A stretch of 64,000 bases of DNA from Planctomycetota bacterium (GTDB lineage: Bacteria; Planctomycetota; SZUA-567; H5-PLA8): positions 240,169-304,168 of the forward strand of contig JBBRPR010000002.1 in the NCBI GenBank assembly GCA_038227875.1, read 5' to 3'. The position numbers and the translations under genes are program-made. A model generated the notes under the pieces. It did no database searches. It saw only the letters and a list, made by a program, of their open reading frames with translations, and was not told the origin of the DNA. This document shows positions 49,838 to 59,634 of the stretch, in pieces. Within the stretch, counting starts at the first letter, position 1, and each line of letters starts with the position of its first letter.

Positions 49838-49843
49838 GACGGA

Positions 49844-49885
49844 GTCATTGGTCAGTGGTCATCGGTCATTGGTCATTGGTCATTT
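49844..49885 (+). repeat. Heptamer tandem repeat (GTCATTG)x6
   Basis: gtcattg gtcagtg gtcatcg gtcattg gtcattg gtcattt. Confidence 0.8.
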
Positions 49886-49926
49886 TTCATTTAACGGACC
49901 GTGTGTCGTAGTTATCAGCGAATCAC

Positions 49927-49960
49927 GTGAGGCAGGCCCTGGTGGCCTGCCTCACTTTTT
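49927..49960 (+). terminator. Intrinsic terminator after secDF
   Basis: GTGAGGCAGGCC / GGCCTGCCTCAC stem followed by TTTTT. Confidence 0.88.
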
Positions 49961-50050
49961 ATGAACGAAAATATCTCCGCTTAAACGCCGTCCCTCTCCA
50001 GCTTTAGCCATTTGGTGCACAGAAAAACAGAGCGACCGTTTGATTTTCTA

Positions 50051-50100
50051 TAAGTGTATAGTGTACACTAAGACTGTAGATAGTGTTCGGTTAACACTAA
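50051..50100. promoter_or_regulatory. Two tandem NrtR-type operators (21-bp palindromes with GT-N7-AC core)
   Basis: TAAGTGTATAGTGTACACTAA (50051-50071) and ATAGTGTTCGGTTAACACTAA (50080-50100), just before RBS GGAGG at 50106. Confidence 0.72.
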
Positions 50101-50119
50101 TAACTGGAGGACGCCAACC

Positions 50120-50959
50120 GTGACCACGCACTTCGCCATCGCCGCAGGATCGGTCACCGGCCGCGACCATGCGCAGTGCGGGCGCGGGAATCAGGATGCC
50201 CTCCACATCGCCACGCGCGATCAAGTTACCGCACTTGTCGTCTGCGACGGCTGCGGGAGCAGCGCCCACAGCGAAATCGGCGCGTGGCTCGGCGCGCGCT
50301 GGACCGGCGAACTGCTCCTGAAGTACATGCTCAAAGACCCGGCCGCACTGAATTCCAACGAAACGGCGCAAGCACTTCTGGAACGCGTACGCCAACGCTT
50401 GCTGCGGCGGTTGCGCAGCCTGGTGCTCAGCGTCTCAGGTCCGAAAAACGAAGCGCTCACCGATGTCCTCTTCACCATCGTCGGCGCGCTGATCACGCCG
50501 ACGTACACGGTGCTCTACTCGCTCGGCGACGGACTGCTGGTGCTCAACGGCGATGCCCTGCGCATCGGGCCGTTTCCCGGCAACGAACCCCCGTACGTGG
50601 CCTACGGCCTCTGCCGCAGCGCCGAGCGAGCACCCAAGTTTACGCTCCACCACCGCATCGCGACGAGCGATGTTCGTTCACTCCTGGTCGGCACCGATGG
50701 CGCCGGAGACTGGACGGACATCGCCGCGAAGTTTCTGCCCGGGCGCACGGAACTCGCCGGGCCTTTAAGCCAGTTCTGGCAGGATGAGCGGTATTTCAAA
50801 AATGCCGATGCCATCCGCCGCAAGCTCGCGCTGGTCAACCGGCCCGCGACGCTCCCCGACTGGACCACACGGGCTGTGCAGCGCATCCCGGCGCTCCTGC
50901 GCGATGACACGACACTGATCGTCGCGCGGCGCATCGGCGGAGAGGCGGTGCAGCCATGA
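50120..50959 (+). CDS. PP2C-like protein phosphatase (YegK / PP2C_2 type)
   Basis: 'GSVTGRDH...NQDA', 'VVCDGCGSS..SEIGA', 'LGDG', 'GTDG', 'DDTT'. Confidence 0.87.
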   Translation: MTTHFAIAAGSVTGRDHAQCGRGNQDALHIATRDQVTALVVCDGCGSSAHSEIGAWLGARWTGELLLKYMLKDPAALNSNETAQALLERVRQRLLRRLRSLVLSVSGPKNEALTDVLFTIVGALITPTYTVLYSLGDGLLVLNGDALRIGPFPGNEPPYVAYGLCRSAERAPKFTLHHRIATSDVRSLLVGTDGAGDWTDIAAKFLPGRTELAGPLSQFWQDERYFKNADAIRRKLALVNRPATLPDWTTRAVQRIPALLRDDTTLIVARRIGGEAVQP

Positions 50960-52827
50960 AAATCCTCCTCGCTGGAAAAAAGATCGCGCTCGATCCGGCC
51001 AAGGCCTTCGGCAAAGGCGGCGAAGCCGACGTCTTCGATCTCGGCCAGGGCACCGCGCTGAAACTGTACAAGCAGCCCGATCATCCCGACTTCGACGGCT
51101 TCCCCGATCAGCAGGCCGCCGCGCAGCAGCGTCTCGACATGAACCAGCGCAAGCTTCCGCTTTTCCCGAAGCAGCTGCCGGAGCGCGTCGTCGTTCCCGA
51201 TCAGCTCGCGACCGATGCGAGCACCGGGCGCATCGCCGGGTACTCCATGAAACTGGTCGCCGGCGCCGAGCCGCTCCTGCGCTACAGCGAACGCGGATTC
51301 CGCCAGACGGCCGGCATCAAGCCGGGCGCCGTGGTCGAGATTTTGCGCGATCTGCACGCCAGCGTCCGCGCGCTCCACCGCGGCGGCGTGGTGATCGGCG
51401 ACTTCAACGATCTGAACGTGCTCGTCGCCGGGCAGAAAGCGCACCTGATCGACGCCGACAGCTTCCAGTTCGGCGCGTTTCTTTGCCCGATGTTCACGGT
51501 GAAGTTCGTCGACCCGGCCCTCTGCGCGCAGAACGCCAAGAGCCTCGACTTGATGCAGCCACACAACCGCGAATCGGACTGGTACGCGTTCGCGGTGATG
51601 CTGATGCAGTCGCTGCTCTACGTCCATCCGTACGGCGGCATCTATAAGCCGAAGGATCCCACACGGCGAATGCTGCATGACGAGCGGCCGCTGCAACGCA
51701 TTACGGTCTTCAATCCGGAAGTCGTCTACCCCAAGCCGGCGCTCCACTTTTCGATCCTCCCCGACGAGGTGCTCGACTTTTTCCACCGCGTCTTCGAACA
51801 GGACCAGCGCGGCGAAGTTCCGGAGCGTGTGCTCGATGCCATGGAGTGGTCGGTGTGCCCGGTCTGCGGCACGGAACACGCGCGCCGCATCTGCCCGCAT
51901 TGCGTTCACACCGCCCCCGCCGCGATCAAGTCCGTCACGCGCGTGCGTGGAACCGTCACCGCCACGCGCGTGTTCAAGACTCCCGGCGTGATCCTGCATG
52001 TGGCGCTCGACCGGGGACAGCCGCGCTGGCTTTACCATGAAAACAACGCCTTCAAGCGCGAAGACGGATCGACCGTCAGCGGCGGGCCCCTCGCACCGGG
52101 ATTGCGCTACCGGATTGTGAAGCAGGCGACGGTGCTGGGACGCGACGGCCAGTTCGCGGTGCTCGAAACCGGCAAGCCGCTGCGCCGGCAGAGCACCGAT
52201 GCGTTCCGCCATCTGCCCATGTTCGACGTCAACGCGCGGCACTGCTACTGGGCGCTGGGTGGACAGCTCTTCCGCGACGGAACGCTCGGGCCGGAATACA
52301 TCGGCGACGTGCTGCCCGAGCGGACTGTCTTCTGGGTGGGCGATCAATTTGGATTCGGCTTCTACCGCGCCGAGCGGCTGAGCGTCGCGTTCGTCTTCGA
52401 CGCCAACCAGCGCGGCATCAACGACCGCGTCAAGCTGCCGCGCCTGCGTGGGGAATTGATCGACGCTCACTGCGTCTTCGCCGGCAACCGCGCCTGGTTC
52501 TTCACTGCCGCGCAGGAGAACGGACGACACCGCAACCAGTGCACGGTTCTGGATTCCAGCGGCGCGATTCTCGCCACGGCCGAGGCGGAAGCCGGCGACG
52601 GAAGCTGGCTGGCCCACATTCGCGGTAAGTGCGGGGCGGGGGAGTTCCTCTTCGCACCGACCGACGCCGGCGTCGTCCGCCTGAAACTGGCCGGCGGCAC
52701 GATCGCCCTGGACCGCGAATTTCCCGACACGGAACCGTTCGTCGATGCGGATTCCGAACTGCTGGCCTCGCCGCACGGACTGGTCTGCGCGACGAAACAC
52801 GAGATTCAACTGCTCGCCTTTTCTTAA
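50956..52827 (+). CDS. YegI-like atypical Ser/Thr kinase with zinc ribbon and beta-rich C-terminal region
   Basis: 'GKGGEADVF', 'ALKLY', 'IGDFNDLNVL', 'LIDADSFQ', 'SDWYAFAV', CPVC..CPHC; ATGA overlap with phosphatase. Confidence 0.87.
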   Translation: MKILLAGKKIALDPAKAFGKGGEADVFDLGQGTALKLYKQPDHPDFDGFPDQQAAAQQRLDMNQRKLPLFPKQLPERVVVPDQLATDASTGRIAGYSMKLVAGAEPLLRYSERGFRQTAGIKPGAVVEILRDLHASVRALHRGGVVIGDFNDLNVLVAGQKAHLIDADSFQFGAFLCPMFTVKFVDPALCAQNAKSLDLMQPHNRESDWYAFAVMLMQSLLYVHPYGGIYKPKDPTRRMLHDERPLQRITVFNPEVVYPKPALHFSILPDEVLDFFHRVFEQDQRGEVPERVLDAMEWSVCPVCGTEHARRICPHCVHTAPAAIKSVTRVRGTVTATRVFKTPGVILHVALDRGQPRWLYHENNAFKREDGSTVSGGPLAPGLRYRIVKQATVLGRDGQFAVLETGKPLRRQSTDAFRHLPMFDVNARHCYWALGGQLFRDGTLGPEYIGDVLPERTVFWVGDQFGFGFYRAERLSVAFVFDANQRGINDRVKLPRLRGELIDAHCVFAGNRAWFFTAAQENGRHRNQCTVLDSSGAILATAEAEAGDGSWLAHIRGKCGAGEFLFAPTDAGVVRLKLAGGTIALDREFPDTEPFVDADSELLASPHGLVCATKHEIQLLAFS

Positions 52828-52851
52828 CTTTCTCATGAAAGGAGAAACACC

Positions 52852-53901
52852 ATGGTCGCTCCCAAACTCGCTCCACCCGCACTCCCGCCGTACTTCGACA
52901 AGAAGCTCGTCGGCAAAATCTGGCGCGTGCCGTACCAACAGCGCGCCGCCGAAGCCGAAGAGTGGTCGAAGAAGTACGCCATCCCACCGGCGGCGCGCGA
53001 CAACCCGCGCATCTGCCTGATGCTGATCGACGTTCAAAACACATTCTGCATGCCGGACTTTGAACTCTTTGTCGGCGGCCGTTCGGGCACCGGCGCCGTC
53101 GACGATAACGTCCGCATCTGCGAGTTCATCTACCGCAACCTCGCGCGGATCACCGAAATCGATCCGACCATGGACACGCACACCGCCATGCAGATCTTCC
53201 ACCCGATCTTCTGGATCGACGATGACGGCGGCCATCCCGCGCCGTTCACCAGCGTCGCCCTGGAAGATGTGCAGAAAGGAAAGTGGAAGGTCAATCCGGC
53301 CATCGCTAAGAGCATCGCGGGCGGAAATTACGTCGCGCTGCAACAATTCGCTCTGCACTACGTCACCACGCTGAGCAAGGCCGGGAAGTACCCGCTGACG
53401 ATCTGGCCGTATCACGCGTTGCTCGGCGGCATCGGTCATGCGCTGGTTCCGGCGGTGGAAGAGGCCTGTTTCTTCCACGCGGCGGCGCGGCACAGCCAGA
53501 CCGGATTTGAAATCAAAGGCGGCAACCCGCTGACGGAAAACTACTCGGTGCTGCGCCCGGAAGTTCTCGACGGCCCCGATGGCCGCGCGATCGCGCAGAA
53601 GAACACGCGCTTCATCAAGAAGCTGCTCGACTTCGACGCCGTGGTGATCGCCGGACAAGCCAAGAGCCACTGCGTGGCCTGGACCATCGACGATCTGCTC
53701 ACGGAGATCCTCGCGCAGGACCCGCAACTCGCGAAGAAAGTTTATCTGCTTGAAGACTGCACCTCCCCAGTCGTGGTGCCAGGCGTGATCGATTACACCG
53801 ACGCCGCCAACGACGCGTTCCAGCGCTTCGCCAAAGCGGGCATGCATATCGTCAAGTCGACAGATCCGGTGGAACGCTGGCCGGACCTCGCTGTTCCGTA
53901 G
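52852..53901 (+). CDS. Nicotinamidase-like cysteine hydrolase (isochorismatase superfamily, long form)
   Basis: D-K-C triad in 'LIDVQNTF', 'IKGG', 'GQAKSHCV'; metal ligands 'DTH', 'WPYH'. Confidence 0.85.
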   Translation: MVAPKLAPPALPPYFDKKLVGKIWRVPYQQRAAEAEEWSKKYAIPPAARDNPRICLMLIDVQNTFCMPDFELFVGGRSGTGAVDDNVRICEFIYRNLARITEIDPTMDTHTAMQIFHPIFWIDDDGGHPAPFTSVALEDVQKGKWKVNPAIAKSIAGGNYVALQQFALHYVTTLSKAGKYPLTIWPYHALLGGIGHALVPAVEEACFFHAAARHSQTGFEIKGGNPLTENYSVLRPEVLDGPDGRAIAQKNTRFIKKLLDFDAVVIAGQAKSHCVAWTIDDLLTEILAQDPQLAKKVYLLEDCTSPVVVPGVIDYTDAANDAFQRFAKAGMHIVKSTDPVERWPDLAVP

Positions 53902-54010
53902 TCCGGGCATCCTGCCCGGTCCGACGGACGGAATATGTTCTTTCAAGAACCGTTGTCGTGAATGTGACATTGAGATTTTCCAATACGACCGGGCGGGACG
54001 TCCGGACTAC
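53898..54010. repeat. REPIN-like inverted pair of GTAG-type REP sequences
   Basis: GTAGTCCGGGCATCCTGCCCGGTC (53898-53921) and GACCGGGCGGGACGTCCGGACTAC (53987-54010), 3 mismatches. Confidence 0.75.
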
Positions 54011-54028
54011 AAAAAAGGAGCACTACCC

Positions 54029-54817
54029 ATGAACCAGAACCCCGACATCACCCAACTCTTCCAGACCGCGCAGCAGGACGGCACGCTTTCGACGGAAGCC
54101 GCGCAAGCCTTGAGCGTCGTCGACATCGGCGCGCAGATTCAGGCGGGCCTCGGCACGCCAGTCGACAATGTTCAGAGCAGCGAAGTCATCCTCGTTACGA
54201 TGATGCCCGACGATTCCGGCTCGATCCGCTCAAGCGGCAATGCGCAGGTCGTACGCGACGGCCACAATCTCGTGCTCGACGCGCTGGCCTCCTCGAAGCA
54301 GAAGAGCGGTGTGCTGGCGCACACGCGGTACCTCAACGGACACGTCCTGTTTCCGTACTGTCCGCTCGACCAGAGCGTCCGATTGGACAAGAAGAACTAC
54401 AACCCGAGCCTGGGAACGCCGCTGTTCGATCAGACGGTGGTACTGCTTGGCACGGTGCTGGCGAAAGCGCAGCAGTTCTCCGACAACGGCGTCGCGGTGC
54501 GCACCGTGACGCTGATCATCACCGACGGCGCGGACGCCGGTTCACAACAAGCGACCGCCAAGACCGTCGCGCAGATTGTGCGCGACATGCTGAAGACCGA
54601 GCAGCACATCGTCGCCGCGATGGGCATCGACGATGGCTCGACATGTTTCAAAAGCATCTTCAAGAGCATGGGCATCAGCGACGAATGGATCCTGACTCCG
54701 GGCAATTCCCAGACGGAAATCCGCAAGGCGTTCCAGGTCTTCAGCCAGTCTGCGTTGCGCGCGAGCCAGTCGGCGCAGAACTTTTCCAAGATGGCAGCGA
54801 AGGGGTTCTTTAATTGA
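54029..54817 (+). CDS. vWA-domain protein (TerY-like)
   Basis: MIDAS 'DDSGS', 'TPLFD', 'IITDG', 'AMGI'; AGGAG RBS. Confidence 0.83.
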   Translation: MNQNPDITQLFQTAQQDGTLSTEAAQALSVVDIGAQIQAGLGTPVDNVQSSEVILVTMMPDDSGSIRSSGNAQVVRDGHNLVLDALASSKQKSGVLAHTRYLNGHVLFPYCPLDQSVRLDKKNYNPSLGTPLFDQTVVLLGTVLAKAQQFSDNGVAVRTVTLIITDGADAGSQQATAKTVAQIVRDMLKTEQHIVAAMGIDDGSTCFKSIFKSMGISDEWILTPGNSQTEIRKAFQVFSQSALRASQSAQNFSKMAAKGFFN

Positions 54818-54842
54818 GATCAGAACGTAATGATGAGTTATG

Positions 54843-54911
54843 AATGGTGCCACGGATGAACGGACATTTGAGCTGGCGCTCAAACATCCGCGCATCCGTG
54901 GCACCATTTTT
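54843..54911 (+). terminator. Long hairpin closing the operon (terminator or REP-like)
   Basis: AATGGTGCCACGGATG / CATCCGTGGCACCATT arms followed by T run, between convergent genes. Confidence 0.6.
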
Positions 54912-54917
54912 AATTCA

Positions 54918-55550
54918 TCAATCTTTCAACGACGGCGATTCGAGCGTCATGGTGCCTTTGATCTTCAGGCTGAACGGGCCGTCTTTGGAGATCTTGTAGT
55001 TGCCGCTCTTGGCGGTTTTGCCGTTGATCTCGATCTTCAGGACGAGGTCATGGACGGCGATGCTGACTTGGGTCTTCTCATCGGGCTTGACGATCAGGTC
55101 CGACGGCTTGGCGGGAATGAAATTGGGTTTGGCGGACGTGCCGATCTGAATCGGACCGTAGACCATCATTTTGCGCGGGTCCCATTCGAGGCCGAAACCG
55201 GTCACGGACGTCAACCGGGTGGTCATGTTGTTGGAGGTGGGCAGCACGTATTCCTTGGCTTCAAAACTGTTCCGGCAAAAGGCGTTGAGCGTACCCTTGG
55301 CGCCAGTGGCAATGGTGAACGAGAGGGTGCCGTCGGTTTTGGGAGATTCGAGCGATCCGTCGGTGGTTTCGAAAATGTTGGGCTTGGGCATTTTCCACGT
55401 TCCGTGGATCTCGGTGAAACCGGCGGCCTTCAACGCCTTCTCGGCGCCGGGATCGATCTCGTCTTTGACTTCCTTCTCTTTCACTTCAGCGGCTTGAAGG
55501 AGGCAGCAGAGCATAGGCACAAGTGCAATCAGCATAGGTTTAAGATTCAC
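54918..55550 (-). CDS. Hypothetical secreted protein
   Basis: Signal peptide, beta-rich mature region, AAGGAG RBS. Confidence 0.72.
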   Translation of the reverse strand: MNLKPMLIALVPMLCCLLQAAEVKEKEVKDEIDPGAEKALKAAGFTEIHGTWKMPKPNIFETTDGSLESPKTDGTLSFTIATGAKGTLNAFCRNSFEAKEYVLPTSNNMTTRLTSVTGFGLEWDPRKMMVYGPIQIGTSAKPNFIPAKPSDLIVKPDEKTQVSIAVHDLVLKIEINGKTAKSGNYKISKDGPFSLKIKGTMTLESPSLKD

Positions 55551-59097: not shown

Positions 59098-59634
59098 ATG
59101 GCCCGTTCCCCGTTCAAAATTCTGAAGGAAAAGTCGGTCCTGCGCAGCCGCGTATTTGAAGTCCGCCATCAGACGTGGCGCGGGCCGGAGAACAGCTCGT
59201 TTGAGCGGCATACCATTTATCATCCGGGCGCCGTGGCGATTCTGCCGTTCGACGCTGACGGCAACGTGCTGCTGATCCGCCAGTTCCGCCCGGCCGTCAA
59301 CGATTTCCTGCTCGAGATCCCCGCCGGAACGCTGGAGAAGGGCGAAGCGCCGCTCTTTTGCGCCAAGCGGGAGTTGATCGAGGAGACCGGATTCGCCGCC
59401 AAGCGCTGGAAGAAGCTGGGCGCGGTCTTTGCGGCTCCGGGGTTTTGCAATGAGTTGATTCATCTGTTTAAGGCCTGGGATTTGAAGGCGGACTACGCGG
59501 AACAGGACGAGGACGAGCATATTGAACTGGCGCGGATGAGCGTGGGGGCAGTACGCAAGGCGGTGAAGTCGGGGAAGATTCGGGATGCCAAGACGATGAG
59601 TGCGCTGCTGTGTGCGGAAATTTTACAGCATTGA
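59098..59634 (+). CDS. Nudix hydrolase, ADP-ribose pyrophosphatase-like
   Basis: Nudix box 'GTLEKGEAPLFCAKRELIEETG', 'HPGAV', 'QFRP', 'APGF..E', 'DAKT'. Confidence 0.88.
   Translation: MARSPFKILKEKSVLRSRVFEVRHQTWRGPENSSFERHTIYHPGAVAILPFDADGNVLLIRQFRPAVNDFLLEIPAGTLEKGEAPLFCAKRELIEETGFAAKRWKKLGAVFAAPGFCNELIHLFKAWDLKADYAEQDEDEHIELARMSVGAVRKAVKSGKIRDAKTMSALLCAEILQH

Follow-up and report, generated by a model that had tools for sequence, protein, structure and literature searches.

We describe a four-gene operon at positions 50120-54817 of a 64,000-nucleotide stretch of DNA from a Planctomycetota bacterium (the window; assembly GCA_038227875.1, contig JBBRPR010000002.1, positions 240,169 to 304,168). 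Its genes encode, in this order and all in the same orientation, a PP2C phosphatase, a Ser/Thr kinase of the YegI type, a nicotinamidase-like hydrolase and a protein with a von Willebrand factor A (vWA) domain. The module is a real and conserved variant of the TerY-P triad of phosphatase, kinase and vWA protein, dedicated to a divergent nicotinamidase under predicted control of the regulator NrtR, and is apparently undescribed so far. Our preferred reading, to which we assign a probability of roughly 55%, is that NrtR represses the operon and that its products place the first step of deamidating nicotinamide adenine dinucleotide (NAD) salvage under a phosphorylation switch.

The operon and its predicted NrtR control

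An earlier sequence-only reading of this DNA had placed the same four genes at the same positions, and the operon was confirmed by its open reading frames (ORFs), Pfam, hhalign, structural modelling and conserved residues. The kinase OR​F overlaps the end of the phosphatase ORF by 4 bases. The elements of the module are:

50051..50071, no strand: predicted NrtR box 1, a 21-bp palindrome with a GT-N7-AC core (26.1 bits, rank 9 genome-wide)
50080..50100, no strand: predicted NrtR box 2 (23.6 bits, rank 11 genome-wide)
50120..50959, + strand: PP2C_2-family Ser/Thr phosphatase (PphC/YegK-like), GTG start, GGAGG at 50106-50110 (Pfam PF13672)
50956..52827, + strand: YegI-clade Ser/Thr kinase (invariant residues, YegI match, structural model)
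52852..53901, + strand: long nicotinamidase-like cysteine hydrolase, 349 aa (catalytic and metal residues, PDB sequence and fold matches, pncB co-occurrence)
54029..54817, + strand: divergent TerY/YegL-like vWA protein with an intact metal ion-dependent adhesion site (MIDAS) and a C-terminal Ser triplet (residue conservation, Atlas fold)

The proposed TerY-P/YegLKI ancestry of the triad was supported by the match to YegI over kinase domain and Zn ribbon, by PF13672 in the phosphatase, and by the shared MIDAS and Ser triplet. The phosphatase matches PF13672 (PP2C_2) at 68 bits against a cut-off of 24 (E 8e-19) and is 23% identical to E. coli PphC; its metal-binding Asp motifs are nearly invariant across 35 relatives. 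The kinase is homologous to E. coli YegI over the kinase domain and Zn ribbon (hhalign 98%, E 2e-13, 277 columns), and its residues K36, D149 and D166-x-D168, invariant in 25 relatives, correspond to K39, D141 and DSD of YegI, which are essential there (bioRxiv 10.1101/819920; here and below, what we say of cited papers refers to their accessible parts). Downstream of the kinase domain lie a CxxC-CxxC Zn ribbon (C301-C316) and an all-beta C-terminal domain (about 328-622), modelled at a predicted local distance difference test score (pLDDT) of about 82-95; the folds nearest to it are WD40/Kelch propellers, and the model thus points to a beta-propeller. Whole-chain fold matches are to the LRRK2 kinase-WD40 arrangement, at a predicted template modelling score (pTM) of 0.51 that leaves the domain packing uncertain.

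The vWA protein is more divergent. None of 27 vWA family members, the window's included, matched Pfam at the curated level, and the hhalign match to the TerY/YegL clade is weak (probability 22%, E 0.001). Its structure neighbours in the Atlas are vWA folds, and identity across phyla is 50-70%. In 19 sequences ranging from the window to phages and YegL, MIDAS residues D61, S65, T130 and D166 are invariant, with S63 nearly so, as is the C-terminal triplet S239, S241 and S246. PDB sequence searches with the kinase and vWA profiles returned nothing useful.

Control of the operon by NrtR is very likely on the evidence of its upstream sequence, both binding and release by ADP-ribose being predictions. 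The published NrtR consensus is a 21-bp GT-N7-AC palindrome and the effector is ADP-ribose, which releases the binding of two other NrtRs (PMC2330246). Exact AGTGT-N7-ACACT palindromes occur at 50053 and 50082; allowing one mismatch gave 3 matches against 0.48 expected, and the exact form occurs only 8 times in 9.3 Mb, two of them before this operon. With a matrix trained on nine other genome sites, the window boxes being excluded from training, the best remaining non-training site scored 20.2 bits, below both window boxes. As a permuted-matrix control gave 0-8 matches above 18 bits in 6.1 Mb, sites near 18-20 bits were not trusted.

The rest of the regulon is coherent. The genome's one nrtR heads an nrtR-NADAR-pncA-Nudix-macro cluster and is itself preceded by this site. 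High-scoring sites also lie ahead of pncB/nadE and an OGFr_N gene, of two sirtuins, of two ADP-ribosylglycohydrolases (ARH), of two genes of the PARG type, of DUF4291 and of an unknown gene, and a lower-scoring one stands in front of a gene that by eye looks Nudix-like. Apart from the window's two, 10 of the 12 top sites precede checked genes, nine of which belong to NAD salvage, ADP-ribose metabolism or DUF4291. The operon is probably switched on by an NAD breakdown product.

The association recurs among relatives, for which we considered the best 80 of 581 confirmed genome loci, a set biased towards close relatives. Among these are 29 related operons, defined as PP2C-bearing loci; in the three without the full set, the locus stops no more than 533 bases from the hydrolase. 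Upstream of 23 of the 29 there is a box scoring 13 bits or more, compared with 4 of 39 solo hydrolases, and an nrtR gene (43-71% identical) adjoins 20 of the 29. The earlier proposal of NrtR control was well supported, and so was a conserved linkage. In two genomes of the same family the order is permuted to hydrolase-vWA-PP2C-kinase, and the tandem boxes stand before the new first gene, the hydrolase; one of these operons is divergent from pncB-nadE. These permuted copies share only 49% hydrolase identity with the window.

Several further observations concern NrtR sites. Six loci (L057, L063, L079, L081, L085 and L088) lack the main box but carry, ahead of the hydrolase or the operon, a variant palindrome of the TTAT-R-GT-N7-AC-Y-ATAA type, perhaps the site of another NrtR clade. 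A 417-aa gene with no Pfam match (L003:6272-7525; G000:C2:202271-203524) lies right behind a 31-bit NrtR box and is an unknown regulon member. At L004:6910-8726, genes that by eye resemble those for RtcB and release factor H are convergent with an NrtR-controlled microbial PARG gene.

A probable divergent nicotinamidase with an optional triad

We strongly infer that the hydrolase converts nicotinamide to nicotinate, feeding PncB-NadD-NadE; the activity is a prediction. It has no Pfam match, PF00857 included. Its AlphaFold model (pLDDT 97) has nicotinamidases in the top 13 listed Foldseek rows, and a profile search of PDB sequences gave its best hit to Pnc1 (E 7e-9). The triad D60/K222/C274, the metal site D108/H110/H188, and F65 and W185 are conserved, and in the alignment this genome's canonical PncA has matching catalytic and metal residues, in agreement with the earlier assignment of the protein as nicotinamidase-like. 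The protein carries large insertions, and ahead of its catalytic Cys it has a serine, S272, in place of the acidic residue usual there.

Co-occurrence with pncB points the same way. In an even set of 151 cyanobacterial-phylum genomes, 50 carried the hydrolase (in two of them partial or split, in three interrupted by an internal stop), 56 carried pncB, 49 both and 94 neither; kin are not independent, and the significance of this co-occurrence is accordingly overstated. Canonical PncA scored above its cut-off in just 3 of the 151, all pncB-positive and hydrolase-negative. Because the PncA model misses Bacillus-type PncA in a control, PF00857 was checked in 10 genomes with hydrolase and pncB, and no other family member was found in 6, with one present in the other 4. 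Across 53 hydrolase-bearing genomes pncB was present in 48, and canonical PncA only in the three of the source organism's family. Since the hydrolase tracks pncB and canonical PncA is rare, nicotinate production is its likely job, and gene content suggests that it replaces canonical PncA in cyanobacteria.

The module is patchy in its distribution (hydrolase in 3 of 41 relatives and 11 of 201 own-phylum genomes), and among the 80 loci vWA is present in 38, kinase in 33, PP2C in 29 and all four genes in 26, one with a kinase remnant only; ARH is inserted in 12 of the 29 related operons. Matches to the vWA profile, which passed over one distant vWA that a broader profile picked up, were confined to 3 of 151 cyanobacterial-phylum and 4 of 201 own-phylum genomes, always beside the hydrolase. 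In a tree of 90 rows, built by a quick method and leaving aside loci whose flanks were short and held no partner gene, solo hydrolases are interleaved with module-linked ones, and well-supported branches force at least 5 changes; the deep branches are sampled from viruses only and the root is a long branch. The simplest reading of this tree is that solo hydrolases arose by repeated loss of the triad. Thirteen other positions, none a Ser/Thr kept with the module and lost without it, separate module-linked from solo forms and may mark an interface or kinship.

Relatives of 32-62% identity also occur in three GenBank huge-phage records and in IMG/VR contigs. All four genes were found in 68 of 76 IMG/VR loci and in 19 of 22 representatives; many of the 76 are nearly identical members of a single gut lineage, five came to light through the vWA, eight contributed to the profiles, and of the eight incomplete loci five run into a contig edge. 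Neighbours include pncB, nadE, a nadD-like gene, NrtR, Tpt1, Pnkp-Hen1, RNA ligase, Thg1 and DUF2828. PF04095 was found in 12 of 23 viral records and NadE in 11; a PF17767 test on 10 chosen records, nine PF04095-positive and one not, returned PncB in 10 of 10. As a terminase was found in 2 of 5 tested records, some IMG/VR records may not be phages. One viral record encodes its own NrtR directly after the module's kinase (L110:12983-13684).

Some variants of the hydrolase gene deserve mention. An unnamed domain of ~240 aa with no Pfam or Atlas match is recurrently fused to the N-terminus of the long nicotinamidase (P0123, P0127, P0130, P0132, P0135, P0144); a metagenome scan for it found mostly unfused copies, and no vWA-hydrolase fusion was seen among 150 representatives. 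In one genome (G094, L206:5260-6246) a different isochorismatase-like gene of 329 aa, possibly a third nicotinamidase type, lies between pncB and nadE. In G084 and G085 (L089, L090) the hydrolase has a single box and the vWA gene is on another contig, apparently broken-up operons.

The surroundings of the window operon contain these elements:

49927..49965, + strand: intrinsic terminator of the upstream unit (12-pair stem plus T run; z -4.9; single copy genome-wide)
53898..54011, no strand: dispersed palindromic repeat between hydrolase and vWA (z -5.4; 72 matching places in the genome)
54830..54922, no strand: closing hairpin between convergent genes, a dispersed repeat (z -10.8; 64 matching places in the genome)

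The upstream genes are, as we take it from reading their sequences, tgt-yajC-secDF. The operon had been described as insulated by the secDF terminator and a closing hairpin. The terminator is real and unique in the genome; the hairpin is real too, but with 64 matching places it was rejected as a dedicated insulator. Given their genomic copies, it and the repeat at 53898-54011 are dispersed palindromic repeats rather than module-specific insulation, although the closing hairpin may serve as a terminator. Together with 49838-49890 they represent three dispersed short-repeat families of 64-76 matching places each. A promoter scan upstream of the operon found no site, and G+C content at third codon positions (GC3) is host-like (0.80-0.84 versus 0.82-0.85). 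A Nudix hydrolase gene at 59098-59634, 4 kb downstream and with no NrtR box found, lies outside the module.

A possible phosphorylation switch and its rivals

Under our preferred reading, NAD cleavage or the erasure of ADP-ribosylated targets would yield ADP-ribose, which, going by NrtR biochemistry, would release NrtR from both boxes and induce the operon along with pncA, pncB, nadE, sirtuins, ARH, PARG and NADAR. The hydrolase would turn nicotinamide into nicotinate for PncB-NadD-NadE. Through its Zn ribbon and propeller the kinase would sense a ligand or protein. With PP2C acting against it, it would determine how far a partner is phosphorylated, the likeliest target being the Ser-rich last helix of the vWA protein, which might then tune the hydrolase or its flux in either direction. 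The switch would be accessory, the enzyme working without it in many genomes. Phospho-control of the salvage step by kinase, PP2C and vWA, which we only infer, stands at about even odds. A bolder version is tentative and, on balance, doubtful: a kinase-gated NAD-recovery device common to bacteria and huge phages, in which the propeller kinase would detect NAD depletion or ADP-ribosylation and activate the divergent nicotinamidase via the vWA, the phage copies with PncB-NadD-NadE providing sensor-controlled NAD reconstitution against NADase defences.

A number of observations weigh against this reading. The hydrolase scores 15.4 bits against the curated PncA model NF008623 (cut-off 174) and is 145 residues longer than PncA. 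Canonical pncA lies within the same NrtR regulon, so the module cannot be the sole salvage gate in this genome. Among viral records, 11 of 23 lack PF04095 and 12 of 23 lack NadE, including complete ones of 82-153 kb. The hydrolase stands without vWA in 47 of 50 cyanobacterial-phylum genomes and, of 10 further genomes from the window's own phylum, 6 lack the triad (contig ends interrupt one of these). With vWA found only beside the hydrolase, the linkage is one-way, the hydrolase being better regarded as the core and the triad as optional. Nor did we find any Ser/Thr kept in module-linked hydrolases yet lost in solo ones. The earlier suggestion that the hydrolase is the kinase's substrate was therefore not borne out, and the Ser triplet of the vWA helix is favoured, as its most likely target from residue conservation. 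Taken together, these findings suggest that the triad is an accessory phospho-switch acting on nicotinamide salvage and not a TerY-P defence system.

That defence role, to which the sequence-only reading had pointed, is the strongest rival, though we consider it unlikely. ADP-ribose from phage attack would induce the operon, the kinase would sense a phage protein, the response would limit infection, and the hydrolase would clear nicotinamide. The triad is indeed homologous to YegLKI/TerY-P, TerY-P has been reported active against T7-like phages (PMC7699616), and ARH/PARG co-regulation resembles predicted counter-ADP-ribosylation systems (PMC9503650, section 3.8). The patchy distribution noted above would also fit, as would a window copy nearer to cyanobacterial copies (about 75%) than to those of its own family (49%). 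However, no nuclease or toxin partner recurs among the neighbours, the context is housekeeping with host-like GC3, the vWA is strongly conserved across phyla, and large phages themselves carry the unit beside NAD salvage (pncB, nadE, nadD) and RNA-repair genes.

Somewhat less probable again is a metal-sensing maturation unit, in which the MIDAS vWA would load or guard the hydrolase's metal and the kinase and PP2C would respond to metal or redox rather than to NAD stress. The intact MIDAS, the Zn ribbon and the metal-dependent PP2C are consistent with it, no other pair of neighbours persists as often as hydrolase and vWA (38 of the 80 loci), and a metallochaperone need of PncA is reportedly the topic of one published paper (PMC6941528). 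TerY-P has also been hypothesised to be a metal-sensing switch (cited in PMC11090510). Yet solo hydrolases, the majority in cyanobacteria, keep the same metal ligands, and the NrtR boxes tie expression to ADP-ribose. The least likely alternative is that the module hydrolase has another amide or acyl substrate, an NAD or ADP-ribose by-product, and is hence not redundant with canonical PncA, which accompanies it in all three module-bearing genomes of the source family; its insertions and S272, and some complete smaller quartet-bearing phages in which neither PncB nor NadE was matched, would fit, but the tree intermixes solo hydrolases with module-linked ones, the active-site residues of both are identical, and the solo ones track pncB.

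If the phosphorylation switch on NAD salvage is correct, a TerY-P-type triad gains a concrete partner and inducer, and post-translational control is suggested at the entry to NAD salvage, a control point apparently not described before. A likely nicotinamidase is also named for many cyanobacteria with PncB but no recognisable PncA, in a family that escapes Pfam and NCBIfam cut-offs, and a candidate regulated route is added to the contest between phage and host over NAD.

Comparison with known systems

The four-gene unit was not found in the searchable literature; Anantharaman 2012 and Gerdes 2006 with supplements lie outside it and could already name the gene set or the enzyme of cyanobacteria. 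The accessible parts of PMC11090510, PMC7699616, PMC9503650, PMC7824862, PMC11662467, 10.1101/2024.02.11.579819 and PMC13464706 do not describe it.

The nearest relatives of the triad are E. coli YegL-PphC(YegK)-YegI and TerY-P, which share the MIDAS vWA with C-terminal Ser triplet, PP2C_2, and a kinase with a GD-x-N loop, DxD and Zn ribbon. The module differs from them in its nicotinamidase-like fourth gene, its order and its predicted NrtR control, and its kinase ends in a predicted beta-propeller where YegI has a membrane part and TerY-P an OB fold; there is no restriction or ter context. In the anti-phage TerY-P form, as the accessible text of PMC11090510 describes it, the kinase is fused to an OB fold in a stand-alone three-gene unit; with its C-terminal propeller and a vWA found only with the hydrolase, the module does not belong to that form. 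PADLOC gave no TerY match for the module, and likewise none for the controls E. coli YegL, PphC and YegI.

With PncA/Pnc1 (PDB 2wta, 2h0r, 3pl1) the hydrolase shares the fold, the Asp-Lys-Cys triad, the Asp/His/His metal site, the Phe/Trp/Tyr pocket and the coupling to pncB. It differs in length (349 versus about 200 aa), in a structural identity of 17-18%, in falling below the PF00857 and NF008623 cut-offs, and in its optional kinase module. The regulation resembles the NrtR regulons of Rodionov et al. 2008 (PMC2330246), with 21-bp GT-N7-AC palindromes, an autoregulated nrtR, pncA/pncB/nadE and draG-type targets; Table 1 of that paper, as accessible, lists no kinase, phosphatase or vWA target, and the regulon here adds PARG, sirtuin, NADAR, OGFr_N and DUF4291.

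The ARG-centred counter-ADP-ribosylation systems of Iyer et al. 2022 (PMC9503650, section 3.8) likewise combine a Nudix-HTH repressor, the ADP-ribosylglycohydrolase ARG, a phosphatase and sometimes a vWA. The core here is nicotinamidase, kinase and PP2C, none named in the accessible text of that section, and ARH is optional. Membership in those systems, which pair ARG with a rhodanese-type, calcineurin, HD or HAD phosphatase, was rejected for the window operon, which has a PP2C and no ARH. Finally, the phage copies recall the NARP1, NARP2 and NARP3 routes and the pncB-nadD-nadE clusters of jumbo phages, in which NAD rebuilding is likewise phage-borne (10.1101/2024.02.11.579819; PMC13464706; PMC11662467, each in its accessible part). 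Lacking the Adps-Namat, Nampt-Nmnat and PnuC-NadR pairs of the NARP routes, the module is instead deamidating, starts at the nicotinamidase, and brings with it a kinase, a phosphatase and a vWA protein.

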